This document shows positions 1 to 6,805 of a stretch of 64,000 bases of DNA, one piece after another; the first letter of the stretch is position 1; every line of letters begins with the position of its first letter. Source of the stretch: an uncultured Gammaproteobacteria bacterium (GTDB lineage: Bacteria; Patescibacteriota; Microgenomatia; Daviesbacterales; UBA10151). The notes beneath the pieces were generated by a model. The model was not told where the DNA came from. It saw only the letters and a list, made by a program, of their open reading frames with translations, and did no database searches. Position numbers and translations under genes: made by a program. The DNA is taken from the NCBI GenBank assembly GCA_964523905.1, contig CAZFYQ010000002.1, positions 66,177 through 130,176 of the forward strand, read 5' to 3'.

Positions 1-365
1 TTTATCCAGGTTGTGTTTTTAGGTAATAAGTGTTTGGCTTTTTCGGCCCATTCCACGAGTACTAAATTTTCCGGATTGTTAAAAATTTCTTCCAAACCTA
101 TGCCGGTGAAATCTTCCAAACGATACAGATCAATGTGATAAAGTGTTTTTTCGGTGTTGGGAATTTGGTGAAGGCGGATTAGCACAAAAGTCGGAGAGAT
201 AATTTTTTCTGTTATTCCTAAGGCTTTGGCAAAGCCCTGGACGAAGGTAGTTTTGCCGGCACCTAAGCCTCCTGATAAAGCAATTACTCCGTTATTAAAT
301 TCTTTAGCCAGTTTGGCTGCCAGCTGCTTGGTTTCTACATCAGACTTAGTTAGGAATTGTTTCAT
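1..365 (-). CDS. tsaE: tRNA threonylcarbamoyladenosine biosynthesis ATPase TsaE (YjeE). The start codon lies inside the window and the 3' end runs off the window edge.
   Basis: Reverse-complement translation from the ATG at 365..363 reads MKQFLTKSDVETKQLAAKLAKEFNNGVIALSGGLGAGKTTFVQGFAKALG... This carries the P-loop GxxGxGKT signature and the overall TsaE pattern. The ORF is open to position 1. Confidence 0.75.
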   Translation of the reverse strand, partial: MKQFLTKSDVETKQLAAKLAKEFNNGVIALSGGLGAGKTTFVQGFAKALGITEKIISPTFVLIRLHQIPNTEKTLYHIDLYRLEDFTGIGLEEIFNNPENLVLVEWAEKAKHLLPKNTTWI

Positions 366-1110
366 GACTTTTTCTACTGCGTAAGTATATAAAACCTAAA
401 GAGCCAAGTCCACCCAGGACTAAAATTCCTCCAATCCAGGGCAGAAAATTAAATAGTTGCTGACCAGCTACTTCGGTTTTAGTGTTTGGTTGAGGAGATG
501 GGGTAGTGGCAACTCCAGCAATTGAGGCAATTTGATAATCGGTTTTTGCAGCAGATGAAGCAGGAGAATTATTTCTTTGGCTTAGAATAGTGTATGCAGA
601 AACTGAGTTTGCTGAAGTAGTTGGAGTTTTAGTGACAGCAGAAACAGGAGTATTGGTCGGAATTTTTGGAGTTGGTGTGGGTGTTGGTGTTTTGGTGGGC
701 GTTGGAGTGGGTTTAGTTGTGGGAATTACAGTAGCAGTAGGTGCTGTTGTCGGTGTATCTGCAGCTGCCGCAAGGCTAAAAGACCAAATAGTACTCCAGT
801 CGCTCCAATTGCCACTGCTATCTTTGGCCTTTACTCGCCAATACCAGTTACCATAACTCAAAGTCGGTGCGTAATGAGTGTTACTAGTATAGTAATCTTT
901 ATTCAATGAACCAAAGCCAGAATCATCATCGACTTGTACACGATAAGGGTTGGAAGAATAAAGAGCATAGCTGGGTGCTTGCCAGTTTAAAGTGCTGGAT
1001 GACACAGTAGAATTATTTTCAGGACTACTTAGTGAAGGAGCGTCACCTGCATATACAGGAAAAGCAAATAATATGCTAGCCACAATGATCAGCAAGACGG
1101 TACGGATCAC
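346..1110 (-). CDS. Secreted or cell-surface protein. It has a signal peptide, an Fn3-like domain (WSDWS motif), a Pro/Thr-rich linker and a C-terminal TM anchor. It uses a GTG start.
   Basis: The ORF track gives 254 aa. The N-terminus is hydrophobic (MIRTVLLIIVASILFAFPVYA), followed by NWYWRVKAKDSSGNWSDWSTIWSF, then TPTPTPTKTPTPTPTP and a C-terminal hydrophobic stretch. Confidence 0.55.
   Translation of the reverse strand: MIRTVLLIIVASILFAFPVYAGDAPSLSSPENNSTVSSSTLNWQAPSYALYSSNPYRVQVDDDSGFGSLNKDYYTSNTHYAPTLSYGNWYWRVKAKDSSGNWSDWSTIWSFSLAAAADTPTTAPTATVIPTTKPTPTPTKTPTPTPTPKIPTNTPVSAVTKTPTTSANSVSAYTILSQRNNSPASSAAKTDYQIASIAGVATTPSPQPNTKTEVAGQQLFNFLPWIGGILVLGGLGSLGFIYLRSRKSHETIPN
640..730. repeat. 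Low-complexity GT-rich coding repeat (GGTGTKGG units).
   Basis: It encodes the TPTPTPKTPTPTPTP linker of the surface protein on the minus strand. It produces a spurious GVGVGV ORF on the plus strand. Confidence 0.5.
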
Positions 1111-1122
1111 GACAATATAATA

Positions 1123-2388
1123 TCACAACAGATGCCAGTAAAGAGCGACCAGGCCGATGCCGGAATCAATTACTAAACCTTTGGCTGGACCATGATCAAA
1201 GTTAATGCCGTTTATATTATTACCCGGACAGCCTGAGTCAGATAAAGAATATGAAGTACCATCAAAAGTTGCTAAAAGCGGAGTGCCAACAAAAGCATCA
1301 TCATATATATCCAGTCCGGTATGTTTTCCCAAAGCATAAATTTGGCCAAATTCCGTACTAATATGAGTTGATGTGGGATATCCCTGCATGGGCGGGCCAA
1401 TCTGGTTATTGTCCAGATAACTATGTGGATTAACTAAATAAGTCCAAATCCGGTTTGCATCACTTGATGAAGAAACCGGGACACCGGTGGTTTTATCCAC
1501 AATTGCCCCTTTTTGCACTTTGGCATTTTGGTAAATTTCAAAGTGCAAGTGTGGTCCGCTAGTACAACCAGTTAGACCCTCCTGAGCAATTACCTCACCT
1601 TTTTTAACCGGTCCAATTACAGTGCCAACATTATTAATAGCCCGGGCAATTGAATCCGCATCGGCTTTTAACTGAGTAATTAAAGCTTGATAGCGGGTTT
1701 CATTATTTTTGGTTAGTCGAAGTAGTTGGTCTTTACTTTGCTTTTGAGAATCTAACTGTTTTTGGTAACCGGCTAACTGTTGATTTAACCTCTCTTCCTC
1801 TAGCTGTTTATTTTGTTTATCCTGTTTTTGGTCATCATAGGAAAGTTTAGTGGCTTGCAGTTCATATAACTTTTGTTTTTCATAGGCCTGAGCGATTTGA
1901 ACATATTTAAATTTTTCCAACAGATCGCTAAATCCTTTGGCAGAAAACAGCAAGTTAAAGCTGCTGACAGTTTGATCATATTTGTAGGTTTGGATTATTC
2001 GAGCGATTAACAAATCAGATAAGCTGTCAACACTTACGCTAATTTGAGTAATATGCAAAGACAGGTTATTAATATCACGCTCAAGTTTAGCCAGATTTAA
2101 CTGAGTATCTTTTATTTTTAAATTAGTAACTTGGGTTTGTCCGTCAATAATATTTAACTGGGACTGCAGAGTATTTTCATTTTGTGATTCTTTATTATAA
2201 AGTTGCTGGCACTGGTTAATTAAATCATCTAAGCAGGCTTTTTTTTGATCTAATTGATCTGCAGGTATTTGGTCACATTTACTACTATCACTACAGCTTT
2301 GAGCGTAAACAGGAGTCAGGCTGTAGGCAACAGGCAACAGTAAAACTATTAAACTAATGCCTAATGCCTGTAGCCTATTGCCTCTCAT
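1123..2388 (-). CDS. Coiled-coil peptidoglycan hydrolase with a C-terminal M23 (LytM-type) metallopeptidase domain. The architecture is EnvC-like.
   Basis: It has a signal peptide, about 200 aa of Q/K/L-rich heptad sequence, and a C-terminus containing the M23 metal-binding motif TGCTSGPHLHFEIY. Confidence 0.7.
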   Translation of the reverse strand: MRGNRLQALGISLIVLLLPVAYSLTPVYAQSCSDSSKCDQIPADQLDQKKACLDDLINQCQQLYNKESQNENTLQSQLNIIDGQTQVTNLKIKDTQLNLAKLERDINNLSLHITQISVSVDSLSDLLIARIIQTYKYDQTVSSFNLLFSAKGFSDLLEKFKYVQIAQAYEKQKLYELQATKLSYDDQKQDKQNKQLEEERLNQQLAGYQKQLDSQKQSKDQLLRLTKNNETRYQALITQLKADADSIARAINNVGTVIGPVKKGEVIAQEGLTGCTSGPHLHFEIYQNAKVQKGAIVDKTTGVPVSSSSDANRIWTYLVNPHSYLDNNQIGPPMQGYPTSTHISTEFGQIYALGKHTGLDIYDDAFVGTPLLATFDGTSYSLSDSGCPGNNINGINFDHGPAKGLVIDSGIGLVALYWHLL

Positions 2389-3608
2389 TAGAAAGTAACT
2401 TTGTCAATTTCATGAATGCTGCCAATAGAATAATGGTCAGTAAAACTAATGTTGTGGCCGTTTGGCACAAATGGATCATTCATTTTATAATTTCCTCCAG
2501 AGCCACTTAGTAATACTACAAAATGATCTGGTCCCCTGCCAATTCCCACAATCACCGGGCGTCCGGCTGCCAGCTCTCCGTCAATTACTGACCCGGCTCT
2601 GCTTGATGAAATGCCATTAGCACTGATGCTGTATTTCAAAAAAGTGGGAGCATAGGCTGCAAAATTATCAGAATTAGCATTAATAGACAAAGGGGTGACG
2701 TCTTTATGACCGTAGTGGGTATAGACCATGGCCATGGAAGTCATTAAACAGCCAATATCAGCAATCCGATCACCGGTTCCATTTAAACCAACATTGCCCC
2801 ATTGAGAATCGCGCTGATTATAATAACAACCCCATTCATCACAAACTGTTTGTCCGGATAATATACTGGAATTTCCACCGGTAAAGGAAGTAAATCCGGC
2901 TAGTTGTGATTGGGCCTGGGCCAGTAATTTCTCATAAGTGGCCTCATTACCCTGAGTTTCGGAAAGCAGTTCCTGCTTGGTTTTTTTCTGATCAGTCAAT
3001 TGTTTTTGGTAAGTATCCAAATCTTTGCTAAGTTTTTCAGCTTCAGCCTGGCGCGTTACTTTATCCTGTTTTTGGTCGTTATAATCTAGCTTGGTAGCCT
3101 GCAGCTCATATAATTTTTGTTTATCATAGGCCTGGGCCACCTGGATATATTTTAATCTTTCTAAAAGATCAGTAATATTTCCAGAGGAAAAGATTAAATT
3201 AAAAGCTGAATCAGTATTGCCGTATTTATAGGTTTGGACAATTCTTTTGAGTAGCAGTTCTGATAAAGAATCCAAGGTACCGGAAATGCGATCAATTCTA
3301 GTTCCCAAATCAGAGATTTGACGCTTTAAAGTAGCTATTTTGGCATTAGTTTCTTGAATTTTTAAATTAGTTACTTTAGTTTGTCCATCAATAATAGCCA
3401 GTTGGGAAGTTAAGGTTTTTTCTTGGCCGCGGGTGACTTGCAGTTGTTGCTCACATTTATTAGTGACATCAGTTAAACAAGATACATCATCGGATCCGCA
3501 AGCTGAGGGATCACAACTTGCTTCAGCATAAACAGGGTACAGGGTGTAGGGTACAGGGTATAGGGTTAAAAATAGTAAAAAGAAATACAGTCGGATTTTC
3601 TTCATCAT
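2388..3608 (-). CDS. Coiled-coil cell-wall hydrolase with a C-terminal Cys/His (CHAP or C39-like) peptidase domain. The architecture is PcsB/CwlO-like.
   Basis: It has a signal peptide. The N-terminal coiled coil is about 55 percent identical to the upstream paralog (shared QAYDKQKLYELQATKL and DQKQDK). The C-terminus carries conserved Cys (IADIGCLMTSMAMV) and His (GPDHFVVLL) typical of CHAP/C39-like amidases. Confidence 0.6.
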   Translation of the reverse strand: MMKKIRLYFFLLFLTLYPVPYTLYPVYAEASCDPSACGSDDVSCLTDVTNKCEQQLQVTRGQEKTLTSQLAIIDGQTKVTNLKIQETNAKIATLKRQISDLGTRIDRISGTLDSLSELLLKRIVQTYKYGNTDSAFNLIFSSGNITDLLERLKYIQVAQAYDKQKLYELQATKLDYNDQKQDKVTRQAEAEKLSKDLDTYQKQLTDQKKTKQELLSETQGNEATYEKLLAQAQSQLAGFTSFTGGNSSILSGQTVCDEWGCYYNQRDSQWGNVGLNGTGDRIADIGCLMTSMAMVYTHYGHKDVTPLSINANSDNFAAYAPTFLKYSISANGISSSRAGSVIDGELAAGRPVIVGIGRGPDHFVVLLSGSGGNYKMNDPFVPNGHNISFTDHYSIGSIHEIDKVTF

Positions 3609-3617
3609 GTAGTTCCA

Positions 3618-4490
3618 TTAAATTTTTAGGTAACGTCTGACAGCGCTAAATGAACCAAAGCCGCCAATAATACAGGCAGCAAGTATTGCTGCTCCCAAAA
3701 TAGCTAACATAAATAATGGACTGACCGGAAGCAGTTTGACATCTCCTAAATAGCTTTGCAAAAAAGGTGTAAAATACCACAAAAGTCCATAAACAACTAC
3801 CCAGGCTGATAAAGCTCCGGCAACTCCGTAAAAAATACCTTCCAGTAAAAACGGATTGCGGATAAAACTAGGGGATGCTCCTAAAAGCCGCATGATTTCA
3901 ATCTCATTTCTTTTTAAACGGATTTTAAAACCAATAATCATCACCACCACCAAAGTGGCAAAGATCATTAAAAAGCCAACAATTGCCGAGCCCACTGTAC
4001 GGATAATCGTAGTCACTGAAGTTAAGGTGGCAACAACATCTTCAGGGACAATTACTTCTGAAACTGCCGGTTCTTTTTTCAAAATTTCAGCCACCGGCTT
4101 TAAATCTTGCGGATCTTGGGTAGAAATTTCCAAAGATGCCGGGAGGATGCTGGAAGTTACCAGTTCAAGGAGTGCCGGGTCATTTTGATTTTTCTGCTGA
4201 TAGATTTTTAAAGCATCCTCCTTGGAAACATATTTGGTTTTAGTAACCCGGGGTTCTTTTGATAGCGCATTTTGAATGGCTGTTACATCAGCTGGAGTAG
4301 TGCCATCTTTGAAAAAAGCAATCACCTGAGGTTTACTTTCAAAATACTTTAATGAGGCCTCACTGCCTGCTGCTACCAGAATAAAAACAAACAGCGCCAG
4401 GAAAGTTAAAAACATCACCATTGAGGCAGCAATCGCCTGCATTGGAGTTCTTCTGATATTTTTCTTGGCAAAAGTAATGGCGCGTGACAT
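3618..4490 (-). CDS. ftsX: Cell division permease-like protein FtsX.
   Basis: It has a 4-TM topology with a large extracytoplasmic loop. Its start overlaps the ftsE stop (TAATG) immediately downstream of ftsE. Confidence 0.75.
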   Translation of the reverse strand: MSRAITFAKKNIRRTPMQAIAASMVMFLTFLALFVFILVAAGSEASLKYFESKPQVIAFFKDGTTPADVTAIQNALSKEPRVTKTKYVSKEDALKIYQQKNQNDPALLELVTSSILPASLEISTQDPQDLKPVAEILKKEPAVSEVIVPEDVVATLTSVTTIIRTVGSAIVGFLMIFATLVVVMIIGFKIRLKRNEIEIMRLLGASPSFIRNPFLLEGIFYGVAGALSAWVVVYGLLWYFTPFLQSYLGDVKLLPVSPLFMLAILGAAILAACIIGGFGSFSAVRRYLKI

Positions 4491-5170
4491 TAGTGTAAAG
4501 TGTATTTCCCTTCTTTAGAATCAGACATTACTTTGCCTTTTTTTAAAGCAATCACCCGCCGTTTTAAAGTATTAACAATTTCCTGGTTGTGAGTAGCCAT
4601 TACAATAGTGGTGCCCCAGGAGTTTATCTCATTTAACAGCTGGATCACGCCCCAGGCTGTTTTAGGATCCAAGTCGCCAGTTGGCTCATCAGCCAGCAGT
4701 ACATCTGGTTTACCAACAATCGCCCTGGCAATTACGGTTCTTTGTGCCTCGCCCCCAGACAGCTGTCTAGGGAATAAATTGCGACGATCCCAAATTTCGA
4801 CCAGTTTTAAAATGTGCTCGACCTGTTTTTCTATTTCACTATCATTTTTCCCCAGCACTTCCAGAGTTAAAGCGACATTTTCAAAAACCGTGCGATCATC
4901 TAATAATTTAAAATCTTGGAAGACAGTACCGACTTTACGACGAAGAGCTGGGATTTCCGAATCCTTCATTTTAGTGATATCAGCATGTCCTACCTTGATA
5001 GTGCCGGAGGTAATGCCGGTTTCTCTGGTTAAAATTCGAAGCAGCGTGGATTTACCAGCGCCGGAAGGACCAACAATAAATACAAATTCACCCTGTTTAA
5101 TCTCTAAAGAGATATCCTCAAGGGCAAACGTCGAACCGAACTTCTTGGAGACAGATTCGAATAAGATCAT
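4490..5170 (-). CDS. ftsE: Cell division ABC ATPase FtsE.
   Basis: It has Walker A GPSGAGKST, the signature LSGGEAQR and Walker B LLADEPTGDLD. It is 226 aa. Confidence 0.85.
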   Translation of the reverse strand: MILFESVSKKFGSTFALEDISLEIKQGEFVFIVGPSGAGKSTLLRILTRETGITSGTIKVGHADITKMKDSEIPALRRKVGTVFQDFKLLDDRTVFENVALTLEVLGKNDSEIEKQVEHILKLVEIWDRRNLFPRQLSGGEAQRTVIARAIVGKPDVLLADEPTGDLDPKTAWGVIQLLNEINSWGTTIVMATHNQEIVNTLKRRVIALKKGKVMSDSKEGKYTLH

Positions 5171-5176
5171 TTAATT

Positions 5177-5620
5177 TCACTTTATTTCCTCAACCTTACC
5201 AACATCCATTAACCAGCCGGCATTTAAGGCTTTTTGAGTTTCACCGTAAACTTTAACTTTTTTACCTTCATATTTAGTTAAATCAACTACTGAGGAAGTT
5301 AGGGCCACTGGATCAGCGCCATCACGTTTTAAGATTTCCGTGCCTTCGGAATAATCTGAAGCATTTTTGTCTTTTGGTGTGACTACACCTTCAGCAAAAT
5401 CTTTGAAGGTAGTGGTATCTTGTTGAGCAGTTTTAGGAGCAACTCCGGGTAAGGAAATCGGGGAAACAGAGCCACCACCACCTTTGGTGGAAAGAATATA
5501 GCCACTGGCTACACCCAAAACTAAAGCAGCAATTAAAGTTCCCAGAAGCAGTCGTTTGGGATCGGAGGTTAACATTGGCTTGGTTAGCTTGTCTTCTGAG
5601 AATGTTTGAGATTCAATCAT
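5177..5620 (-). CDS. Hypothetical membrane-anchored protein with an N-terminal TM helix and an extracytoplasmic C-terminal domain.
   Basis: The ORF track gives 147 aa with one hydrophobic helix (LLLGTLIAALVLGVASGYIL). It sits between prfB and ftsE on the same strand. Confidence 0.4.
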   Translation of the reverse strand: MIESQTFSEDKLTKPMLTSDPKRLLLGTLIAALVLGVASGYILSTKGGGGSVSPISLPGVAPKTAQQDTTTFKDFAEGVVTPKDKNASDYSEGTEILKRDGADPVALTSSVVDLTKYEGKKVKVYGETQKALNAGWLMDVGKVEEIK

Positions 5621-5662
5621 TACTACTTATAATAACCATAAACTGGGTACTTTGTCTACCCA

Positions 5663-6739
5663 CTAATTTGACGGAAGTTTAACCTCAGCTTCAATAAAAT
5701 CAGTTAAATCACCATCAAGCACTGCCTCAGTATCTGAGGTCTCCACATTGGTTCGTAAATCCTTAACCATATGGTAAGGATGTAGCACATAAGATCGAAT
5801 CTGCGTGCCCCAGGAAGCTTGAGTATTGCTGCCTTTTAGTTCGGTTTGTTCTTTTTTCTGCTGAGACTGCTTAAGTGCCCACAGTTTAGCTTTTAACATT
5901 TTTAAAGCATTTTCCCGATTTTGCAGCTGAGAACGTTCGGTTTGACAAGTCACAGTAATTCCGGTGGGAATATGTTTTAACCGAACAGCAGTTGAGACTT
6001 TATTAACATTTTGGCCACCGGCTCCACCAGAACGGAAGCTGTCAAATTCAATTTCATCATCTTTTAATTCTATTTCTTTGTTATCCTCAATCACTGGTAA
6101 AACCTCGACCAAAGCAAAGGAAGTTTGACGCAGCTTATCGGCATTAAAAGGGGATTGGCGAACCAACCGATGCGTGCCGGCCTCGCCTTTTAAATTACCA
6201 AAGGCATAAGTTACATGAACAATCATTGAAAAAGTCTTAAAACCCGCTTCTTCTCCGGGATTTTCATCAGTGATCTCAAATTTCCAGTCACTACGTTCAA
6301 AAAAACGCTGATACATGCGGGCTAACATGGCTGCCCAGTCCATGGCCTCAACTCCCCCGGCTCCGGAATGAATGGAAACAATAGCTTCAGAGCCGTCATA
6401 TGGACCTGATAGAAAAGTTTTTAGCTCAAAAGCTTTTAGAAGCTTTTCAATTTCCCTGGCTTCAGTGAAAAGTTCATCCTGCATTGAATTATCGGCAGCT
6501 AATTCCAAAGCATCATCAATGCGCTTTTCCATAAGCTCTAGACTTTCCAATTGTTTTTGCATGTCTGCTAGCTGTCGACTGACAACTGTGGCCTGCTCCC
6601 GGTCATTCCAAAACCCCTCCTTCATAGTCAAAGCTTCCTTCTCGCGAATTTCCGTGCGAAGAGAGTCCCGGTCAATTGACAAGGAAATCTTCCCAAACCG
6701 CTCTTTTAAATCATGTAATCTGGATTTTATTTCTTCCAT
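5663..6739 (-). CDS. prfB: Peptide chain release factor 2. It is encoded in a single frame with no programmed frameshift.
   Basis: The GGQ motif ([24 protein letters not shown]) and the RF2-specific SPF motif (VRQSPF) are present. The likely ATG start is at 6739 (MEEIKSRL...). The track ORF extends to a TTG at 6787. Confidence 0.85.
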
Positions 6740-6805
6740 GAGGAAATTATATCCTATTCGCCACTTCGAAGCGTGGTTTGATCTCAACTGCTATAATACC
6801 CCCGT

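Follow-up and report, generated by a model that had tools for sequence, protein, structure and literature searches.

The DNA analyzed here, referred to as the window, is a 64,000-nucleotide stretch of contig CAZFYQ010000002.1 from an uncultured Microgenomates bacterium of the candidate phyla radiation (CPR)/Patescibacteria. Its minus strand encodes FtsE and FtsX, followed by two coiled-coil proteins that carry different enzymatic heads, named ORF-C and ORF-M after their open reading frames (ORFs). FtsEX is a conserved switch that licenses cell-wall cleavage in bacterial division. The features of the four genes are listed in the order of transcription, with residue ranges in amino acids (aa).

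4490-5170, minus strand: ftsE, ABC ATPase (Pfam ABC_tran, E 6e-37)
3618-4490, minus strand: ftsX, permease-like subunit with an extracellular domain (Pfam FtsX_ECD 67.6 bits, FtsX 45.7 bits)
2388-3608, minus strand: ORF-C, predicted secreted coiled-coil protein with a C39_2 cysteine-peptidase head, 406 aa
3525-3608, minus strand: signal peptide of ORF-C as read from the sequence, aa 1-28, predicted cleavage after VYA
2880-3485, minus strand: predicted coiled-coil hairpin of ORF-C, aa 42-243 (AlphaFold2 model, Foldseek)
2391-2879, minus strand: head of ORF-C, Peptidase_C39_2 with papain-like fold, aa 244-406
1123-2388, minus strand: ORF-M, predicted secreted coiled-coil protein with a circularly permuted M23 metallopeptidase head, 421 aa
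2302-2388, minus strand: signal peptide of ORF-M as read from the sequence, aa 1-29, predicted cleavage after VYA
1633-2253, minus strand: predicted coiled-coil hairpin of ORF-M, aa 46-252, with the turn at aa 141-151 (AlphaFold2 model, Foldseek)
1414-1614, minus strand: segment 1 of the ORF-M head, aa 259-325, equivalent to the C-terminal half of a canonical M23 domain, with HxH (His280, His282)
1126-1401, minus strand: segment 2 of the ORF-M head, aa 330-421, equivalent to the N-terminal half of a canonical M23 domain, with HxxxD (His356, Asp360) and His419

The order and strand of the four genes are as described in an earlier, sequence-only reading of the window, and Pfam confirms FtsE and FtsX. 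Both Pfam scores of FtsX exceed their cut-offs. Against the NCBIfam equivalog models it reaches 176–177 bits, under cut-offs of 225–255, as is expected of a divergent CPR lineage. The stop codon of ftsE overlaps the start codon of ftsX as TAATG, the same overlap joins ORF-C to ORF-M, and the gap between ftsX and ORF-C is 9 bases. Judged from this spacing, the block from ftsE to ORF-M is laid out as a translationally coupled operon. A promoter scan of the window found 19 promoter-like sites against 17.8 expected, which is chance level. Terminator-like sites numbered 14 against a shuffled mean of 6.6 (about twofold), with none at the gene boundaries inside the block from ftsE to ORF-M. Since these sites are near chance or lie off the gene boundaries, the scan does not define the limits of the operon. 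An Rfam scan of the window gave no matches.

The head of ORF-M appears from its alignments to be an M23 metallopeptidase with a complete active site whose two halves have exchanged places in the chain. ORF-M matches Pfam M23 with 34.9 bits (cut-off 28.7), which upholds the M23 assignment of the sequence-only reading, and the match covers only profile positions 62–92 of 96, at aa 260–290. When ORF-M was compared with the Protein Data Bank (PDB) using phmmer, residues 261–290 (GPHLHFE) aligned to residues 198–238 of 6jn7, the C-terminal part of the solved enzymes. Residues 325–400 (HTGLDI...) aligned to residues 118–188 of 6jn7, which in that entry lie upstream of the HxH part. ORF-M ends in ...LYWHLL, so that the catalytic His419 stands two residues before the C-terminal residue. 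This histidine corresponds to the catalytic histidine that precedes the HxH segment in canonical M23 domains.

The head was de-permuted in silico by joining residues 330–421 to residues 252–329. In the native order, the best stretch for ORF-M and two homologs comprises positions 62–92 of the Pfam M23 profile only. In the rejoined order, all three proteins give a single stretch over positions 2–92, and the M23 scores rise from 38.7 to 46.1, from 55.3 to 64.0, and from 66.5 to 69.7 bits. The rejoined head, in which …LVALYWHLL is followed by NNVGTVIGPVKKGEVIA…GPHLHFE, aligns across the artificial junction to residues 180–238 of 6jmx (E 1.8e-8), and it yields alignments of about 100 residues to TagE, zoocin A, lysostaphin, and others. 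The reversed order of the alignments, together with the single colinear match after rejoining, indicates that the M23 head is circularly permuted, with the HxH segment first and the HxxxD segment second.

Conservation of the permuted head is strong. His280, His282, His356, Asp360, and His419 are invariant in 119 sequences and are kept in more distant members too, and the motif Tyr417-Trp418-His419 is conserved at the C terminus of the aligned family. The HxxxD motif, the HxH motif, and the extra catalytic histidine of M23 enzymes are thus all present in ORF-M, but not in the canonical chain order. The permutation is not an assembly artefact, and it had been missed in the sequence-only reading.

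The head of ORF-C is assigned by its profile matches to the papain-like cysteine peptidases of the Peptidase_C39_2 family. The head alone scores 25.2 bits against PF13529 (cut-off 24) over profile positions 5–129 of 143, and full-length ORF-C scores 22.5 bits, slightly under the cut-off. C39_2 was matched by all 13 family heads scanned, with a best E value of 4.4e-9. The CHAP and NLPC_P60 profiles, in contrast, matched neither whole ORF-C nor any of the 13 heads at E values up to 0.1. The families found with ORF-C or the heads were C39_2, C10, C39, C70, and BtrH_N, among which C10, C39, and C70 were weaker. A profile of the heads had weak matches in the PDB to 9jdd and 9jg8 ("Peptidase C39-like domain-containing protein"), and Foldseek matched ORF-C to the C39 double-glycine protease 6mpz with a probability of 0.92. 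A phmmer search of the PDB with full-length ORF-C returned nothing meaningful. The 120 homologs of the ORF-C family show no variation at Cys287 and Asp378 and almost none at His362; these three residues form the putative catalytic triad. The pair Cys256/Cys261 is invariant as well. The sequence-only reading had described the head as CHAP- or C39-like and had likened it to PcsB (CHAP) and CwlO (NlpC/P60). The C39 part of that description stands, as does the presence of a catalytic Cys/His fold within 2388–3608, whereas neither of the two Pfam families that would place it with PcsB or CwlO was matched. Profile searches thus recovered C39_2 and M23 among the head domains that had been considered, but not CHAP or NlpC/P60.

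The N termini of both proteins read as Sec signal peptides; in ORF-C, a basic n-region, a hydrophobic core, and the residues V-Y-A can be recognized by eye. AlphaFold2 models were made from the family alignments, and in both of them the signal-peptide helix is followed by two long antiparallel helices. The ORF-C model has a predicted local distance difference test score (pLDDT) of 90.6 and a predicted template modeling score of 0.76, with helices at residues 42–60, 66–130, 145–218, and 222–243. The ORF-M model has a pLDDT of 82.5, with helices at residues 46–140 and 152–252. A Foldseek search of the PDB with ORF-M gave as its top match EnvC from the Vibrio cholerae FtsE/FtsX/EnvC complex (8tzl_E, E 1.9e-4), followed by lower matches to the N-terminal domain of RipA, to PcsB, and to EnvC-FtsX (6tpi). 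With ORF-C the best matches were PcsB (4cgk, E 4.8e-4), the Mycobacterium tuberculosis FtsEX/RipC complex (8idc_E), 8tzl_E, and 6tpi. A structural mark of the partner class, a secreted antiparallel hairpin N-terminal to a hydrolase-type domain, is found in both ORF-C and ORF-M. Identity between the two proteins peaks at aa 70–99, 120–149, and 160–199, and Tyr135, Tyr162, Tyr175, and Tyr184, which flank the hairpin turn, are conserved in both families.

The mature N termini of the two proteins (2209–2295 in ORF-M and 3453–3518 in ORF-C, minus strand) each contain four cysteines within the first ~30 residues, which in ORF-M are Cys-32, Cys-38, Cys-52, and Cys-60. This four-cysteine N terminus occurs in both paralogs and in some relatives, including other genomes that encode both proteins, and is lacking in most family members. 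Disulfide bonds between the four cysteines could staple a cap onto the start of helix 1.

ORF-C and ORF-M are homologous over their N-terminal part, where BLASTP gives 52% identity and 71% positives over 224 aa (E 1e-72). The profiles of the two families (119 and 120 homologs) align with a probability of 100% and an E value of 2e-66 over 247 columns. The sequence-only reading was therefore right that a coiled coil of about 200 aa is shared, but the term "nearly identical" overstates an identity of 52–53%. It had also presented the duplication as visible in the DNA. The two 28-mers quoted as an example are real, lie at 1863–1890 and 3107–3134, and differ by 2 mismatches. Over all aligned codons of ORF-C and ORF-M the nucleotide identity is 58.6%, compared with 52–53% for the protein, and the most similar patch is the following.

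1816-1931 paired with 3060-3175: 116 nucleotides with 78% identity, encoding the start of helix 2

Codon use does not point to a recent duplication. Where the paralogs of the window have identical amino acids, they use the same codon in 61 of 118 cases, and ~54 are expected from the codon usage of the genome (p ~0.1). In the most similar patch the figures are 19 of 30 observed and 15.3 expected (p ~0.1), without a synonymous excess, and same-codon use is likewise near expectation in the paralog pairs of three related loci (L009, L001, and L008). The DNA similarity is thus a by-product of protein conservation and codon bias, and recent duplication or gene conversion was rejected as its cause. 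In 4 of 4 genomes tested that encode both partners, here called dual genomes, synonymous sites are saturated between the paralogs while the proteins are 53–64% identical, which indicates that both copies have long been retained under purifying selection. On this evidence from codons, the duplication is old and the similarity is maintained by selection on the protein.

The locus was compared with 80 species-representative loci, most of which come from Candidatus Daviesbacteria, while Woykebacteria and other Microgenomates contribute single loci. Nearly all 80 show the gene order prfB, a small gene, ftsE, ftsX, and a gene encoding the stalk with the permuted M23 head, and most of the related loci contain the permuted M23 form alone. 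Both partners are present in only two of the species representatives (L040 and L068), where the C39 paralog lies between ftsX and the M23 gene; the dual arrangement is therefore as unusual as the sequence-only reading had supposed. The dual loci comprise the window, L001/L002 (GCA_040960095), L008/L068 (same sequence), L009, and L040, and in every dual genome checked both heads retain their catalytic residues. The C39 form stands alone in L006 (Levybacteria protein P0145) and L007. Wherever a related locus reaches upstream as far as ftsX, the next gene after it is a hydrolase gene of the partner type, so that the synteny seen in the window extends to the related genomes.

The stalks of the C39-type proteins fall into two groups. 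In 16 of 117, including those of the window and of other dual genomes, the average identity to the M23-type stalks is 51–75%, and in the remainder it is 31–39%. In a neighbor-joining tree, the M23-type stalks branch from within the C39-type stalks. The stalks of the window group by head type in this tree and those of L008 and L009 by genome. We read the C39 form as the widespread one and the permuted-M23 form as derived from a C39-type partner by duplication and head replacement. One copy would then have been lost in most lineages, with both kept in the genome of the window and a few relatives.

Among 1.84 billion representative proteins, a profile built on the permuted head matched 17 representatives with E < 1e-30 and 518 with E < 1e-10. 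The full-length matches that form a single stretch and are long enough to include a stalk are 357–436 aa in length and have the head at the C terminus. In those whose sequences were read, there is a coiled-coil stalk, and the chain closes with YWH followed by one or two further residues. Single-stretch matches that are shorter (93–270 aa) are probably fragments. One permuted-head match comes from WWE3/Katanobacteria. The permuted M23 head is found in hundreds of proteins from Daviesbacteria and their relatives, and also in Woykebacteria and WWE3/Katanobacteria. The species representatives of GTDB contain 11 further loci with more divergent heads that are also permuted, an example being HLHF...HNGID...LYLHVYY followed by the stop codon.

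Matches in three stretches were rejected as permuted domains. They are tandem canonical M23-M23 proteins, in which the permuted-head profile spans the end of domain 1 and the start of domain 2. Tandem duplication followed by truncation is the classical route to a permutation, and it is plausible that the tandem M23-M23 proteins represent an evolutionary intermediate from which the permuted head arose in this way. Six proteins outside the window (P0265, P0269, P0276, P0280, P0288, and P0267) have two or three canonical M23 domains in direct tandem.

At least three further divergent subtypes of the permuted head occur on the same stalk in Daviesbacteria. Their loci are L067, L071, L073, and L086 (at about 5000–6250); L069 and L085; and L077, L078, L082, and L083, and the proteins end in LYLHVYY, LYWHLQ, or YYLHVL (LYLHVI, YYLHTI). 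In the databases, the permutation is hidden behind the names "peptidoglycan DD-metalloendopeptidase family protein" and "M23ase beta-sheet core domain-containing protein", and C39-type members are mostly labeled hypothetical.

Three genes flank the block from ftsE to ORF-M.

5663-6787, minus strand: prfB, release factor 2 (ORF; PCRF and RF-1 domains in syntenic genes of related loci)
5177-5620, minus strand: small gene between prfB and ftsE, encoding a 147-aa single-pass membrane protein
346-1110, minus strand: gene directly 3' of ORF-M, encoding a surface protein rich in Pro and Thr that has a signal peptide and is anchored in the membrane at its C terminus

The prfB gene is a conserved upstream neighbor, which tblastn places upstream of the module in most of 89 related loci. 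A +1 frameshift site is common in bacterial prfB genes. In the window, the frame is continuous for ~358 aa from an internal MEEIK, with no sign of such a site. The internal MEEIK is probably the real start, and the listed TTG start would over-extend the ORF by 16 codons.

The 147-aa protein has no match in Pfam or NCBIfam, and almost all of the 89 related loci have its gene at the same position. Irrespective of the type of hydrolase head, its C-terminal ectodomain (FKDFAEG...PVALTSSVVDLSQYEGKKVKVFGETQKA..GWLMDVGKVE) is conserved, and none of its more than 1000 homologs has a functional name. This membrane protein is a candidate accessory component of the FtsEX module. Downstream of ORF-M, the product of 346–1110 has an N-terminal domain related to those encoded downstream of the hydrolase gene in two other loci (6346–7350 in L078 and 6237–7355 in L073). 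The same position often holds a gene for an LTD-domain protein, for example in L001 and L006. The 346–1110 gene is a recurrent neighbor and is not counted here as part of the module.

Elsewhere in the window, from about 13000 to 64000, there is a long run of genes that lie nearly all on the plus strand. It includes at least five paralogous PMT_2/GT-C glycosyltransferases of 520–710 aa as well as GT2 and nucleotidyl-transferase genes, and the GC content across this region drops from ~40% to 33–36%.

Among known systems, FtsEX-PcsB of Streptococcus pneumoniae, FtsEX-CwlO of Bacillus subtilis, and FtsEX-RipC of M. tuberculosis and Corynebacterium have partners that, like ORF-C, combine a hairpin with a papain-like head, and in these systems the partner itself is the hydrolase under FtsEX control. 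Their heads are of the CHAP (PcsB) or NlpC/P60 (CwlO, RipC) type, whereas that of ORF-C is C39_2, and the operon of the window differs further by encoding a second, paralogous partner. Other C39-like domains, such as those of the Bacillus anthracis C39-like peptidase, the mycobacteriophage endolysin domain N5, and the PCAT proteases, share the papain-like Cys/His fold with ORF-C. The domain of ORF-C, however, is fused to the coiled coil of an FtsEX partner, and the C39 domain of PCAT proteases cleaves leader peptides and not the cell wall.

FtsEX-EnvC of Escherichia coli, Pseudomonas aeruginosa, and V. cholerae resembles ORF-M in its hairpin and M23/LytM-type head. EnvC activates the amidases AmiA and AmiB through a LytM domain whose active site is degenerate and without metal ligands (PMC11627006), whereas the permuted M23 domain of ORF-M has all catalytic residues. 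ORF-M thus does not show the degenerate site of EnvC-type activators, and the likeness to the EnvC-type partner drawn in the sequence-only reading is not supported where function is concerned. A dead EnvC-type LytM domain was likewise ruled out as an identity for the head, since all five catalytic residues are invariant. Canonical M23 domains (LytM, lysostaphin, zoocin A, TagE, and the Csd/Pgp3 type) share HxxxD, HxH, and the extra catalytic histidine with ORF-M. They run from the HxxxD segment through the catalytic-His strand to HxH, whereas the head of ORF-M begins with the HxH segment and ends two residues after the catalytic histidine.

The module is of the FtsEX-partner kind and differs by its C39_2 head, its active permuted M23 head, and the tandem paralogs found in a minority of genomes. 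In the literature searched, which is not proof of absence, we found no description of a permuted M23/LytM domain or of a C39_2 head on an FtsEX partner, and no paper dealing with the FtsEX partners of CPR bacteria or with a tandem pair of coiled-coil partners of FtsEX. To our knowledge, the FtsEX systems described pair FtsEX with one coiled-coil partner. The LytA/LytB pair of Lactobacillus plantarum was considered as a precedent and rejected, as these enzymes have no coiled coils and FtsEX is absent from the species.

The solved complexes of FtsEX with EnvC and RipC have the stoichiometry FtsE2:FtsX2:partner1 (PMC11627006). In these structures, the two extracellular domains of FtsX hold one end of the coiled coil between them, with many tyrosines and other hydrophobic residues at the interfaces (PMC11627006). 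By analogy, an FtsX dimer would take up the far end of the hairpin between its two extracellular domains, and ATP turnover by FtsE would be passed on through FtsX and the hairpin, freeing the head from autoinhibition. Because each FtsE2X2 holds one partner in the solved complexes, the suggestion in the sequence-only reading that FtsEX can recruit either hydrolase would mean alternate, mutually exclusive binding. ORF-C and ORF-M would then occupy FtsEX complexes alternately, and a single regulator would drive a cysteine and a zinc peptidase of different chemistry, and probably of different bond specificity, at the same site. On balance, we think it probable that the locus, from prfB and the small membrane-protein gene through ftsE and ftsX to the two hydrolase genes, is an operon for cell division and the remodeling of the cell wall, and that one FtsEX alternately drives two chemically different hydrolases that were duplicated from one partner gene.

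Several observations weigh against this interpretation. The two proteins score 17.7 and 21.4 bits against Pfam CC_PcsB, under its cut-off of 27, and the NCBIfam EnvC model gives ORF-M 17.7 bits, far below its cut-off of 270. The columns conserved in both families are scattered from 73 to 242 along the hairpin and do not cluster at the turn, so that no FtsX-binding patch is singled out; a common patch at the hairpin turn was rejected for this reason. The neighbor-joining tree, built from 170 residues, is not robust and too short for a count of duplications, head replacements, and losses, and in two genomes it groups the paralogs by genome. The C39_2 domains are cell-wall hydrolases by prediction only, as in the case of the mycobacteriophage endolysin domain N5 (PMC3314691). 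Finally, we infer binding to FtsX and activation by the FtsE cycle solely from architecture and synteny.

The permutation could also have a function of its own. The alignment that spans the artificial junction implies that the stalk joins the head a few residues away from the point at which canonical M23 domains carry on from the catalytic-His strand, and in ORF-M this strand is the free C terminus. Through the permutation, the M23 domain would have its chain termini at the active site, and movement of the hairpin driven by FtsEX would displace the catalytic-His strand, a solution other than the restraining arm of EnvC. In dual genomes, FtsEX would be time-shared with the cysteine peptidase, and the two enzymes would cut two different bonds during septation in a bacterium with a minimal genome. 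That hairpin movement gates catalysis in this manner and that FtsEX is time-shared is a doubtful proposition, and use of the stalk-head junction for gating is speculation.

Alternatively, the dual state could be a transitional or redundant stage of head replacement, in which the two enzymes do the same job, one of them is dispensable, and the pairing has no function of its own. A single partner follows ftsX in most related species (dual in 2 of 80), an M-like coiled coil is found in just 16 of 117 C39-type matches, and both single-partner states are evidently viable. Against this stand the saturated synonymous sites in four dual genomes, in which the coiled coils and catalytic residues are retained, and the recurrence of the dual state in at least five distinct genomes. 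We consider a mere transition unlikely.

The reading frames of ORF-C and ORF-M overlap and are co-translated, and their coiled coils are homologous, as would suit a hetero-oligomer formed through these coiled coils, with FtsEX binding a C39/M23 heterocomplex. The solved FtsEX complexes, however, contain a single partner with an intramolecular two-helix hairpin, AlphaFold2 gives each protein as a self-contained hairpin with high confidence, and most species carry just one of the two proteins. A heterocomplex is thus very unlikely.

The top structural match of ORF-M is EnvC in its FtsEX complex, and LytM-type activators are described as common in the abstract of PMC10336132. ORF-M might accordingly resemble EnvC and, under FtsEX control, activate another enzyme (an amidase, for example) without being a hydrolase itself, which would leave ORF-C as the sole FtsEX-dependent hydrolase. 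EnvC-type activators, however, lack the zinc ligands (PMC11627006), whereas the five catalytic residues of ORF-M are invariant in 119 sequences, and an ORF-M-type protein is the only partner after ftsX in most Daviesbacteria loci. We give this possibility very little credence.

That the two hydrolases are co-transcribed with ftsEX and yet independent of it would fit the scores below the cut-offs of the CC_PcsB and EnvC models, but it is extremely improbable given that a partner-type gene adjoins ftsX, across head types, in every related locus that reaches ftsX, and that the architecture and best structural matches are those of known FtsEX partners.

Alternate use of one FtsEX by two hydrolases thus remains the reading that we prefer. 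The overall logic of such a module is already known; the permuted head and the natural two-partner case are useful and mildly surprising to specialists, and current annotation names conceal the permutation. In these CPR operons, the partner module can swap its catalytic head, C39_2 or M23, while the stalk is kept. The dual genomes, with two chemically different partners behind one FtsEX, offer a natural test of partner specificity and competition. The permuted M23 domain places the junction of stalk and head beside the catalytic histidine, which may bear on the mechanical switching of such enzymes.

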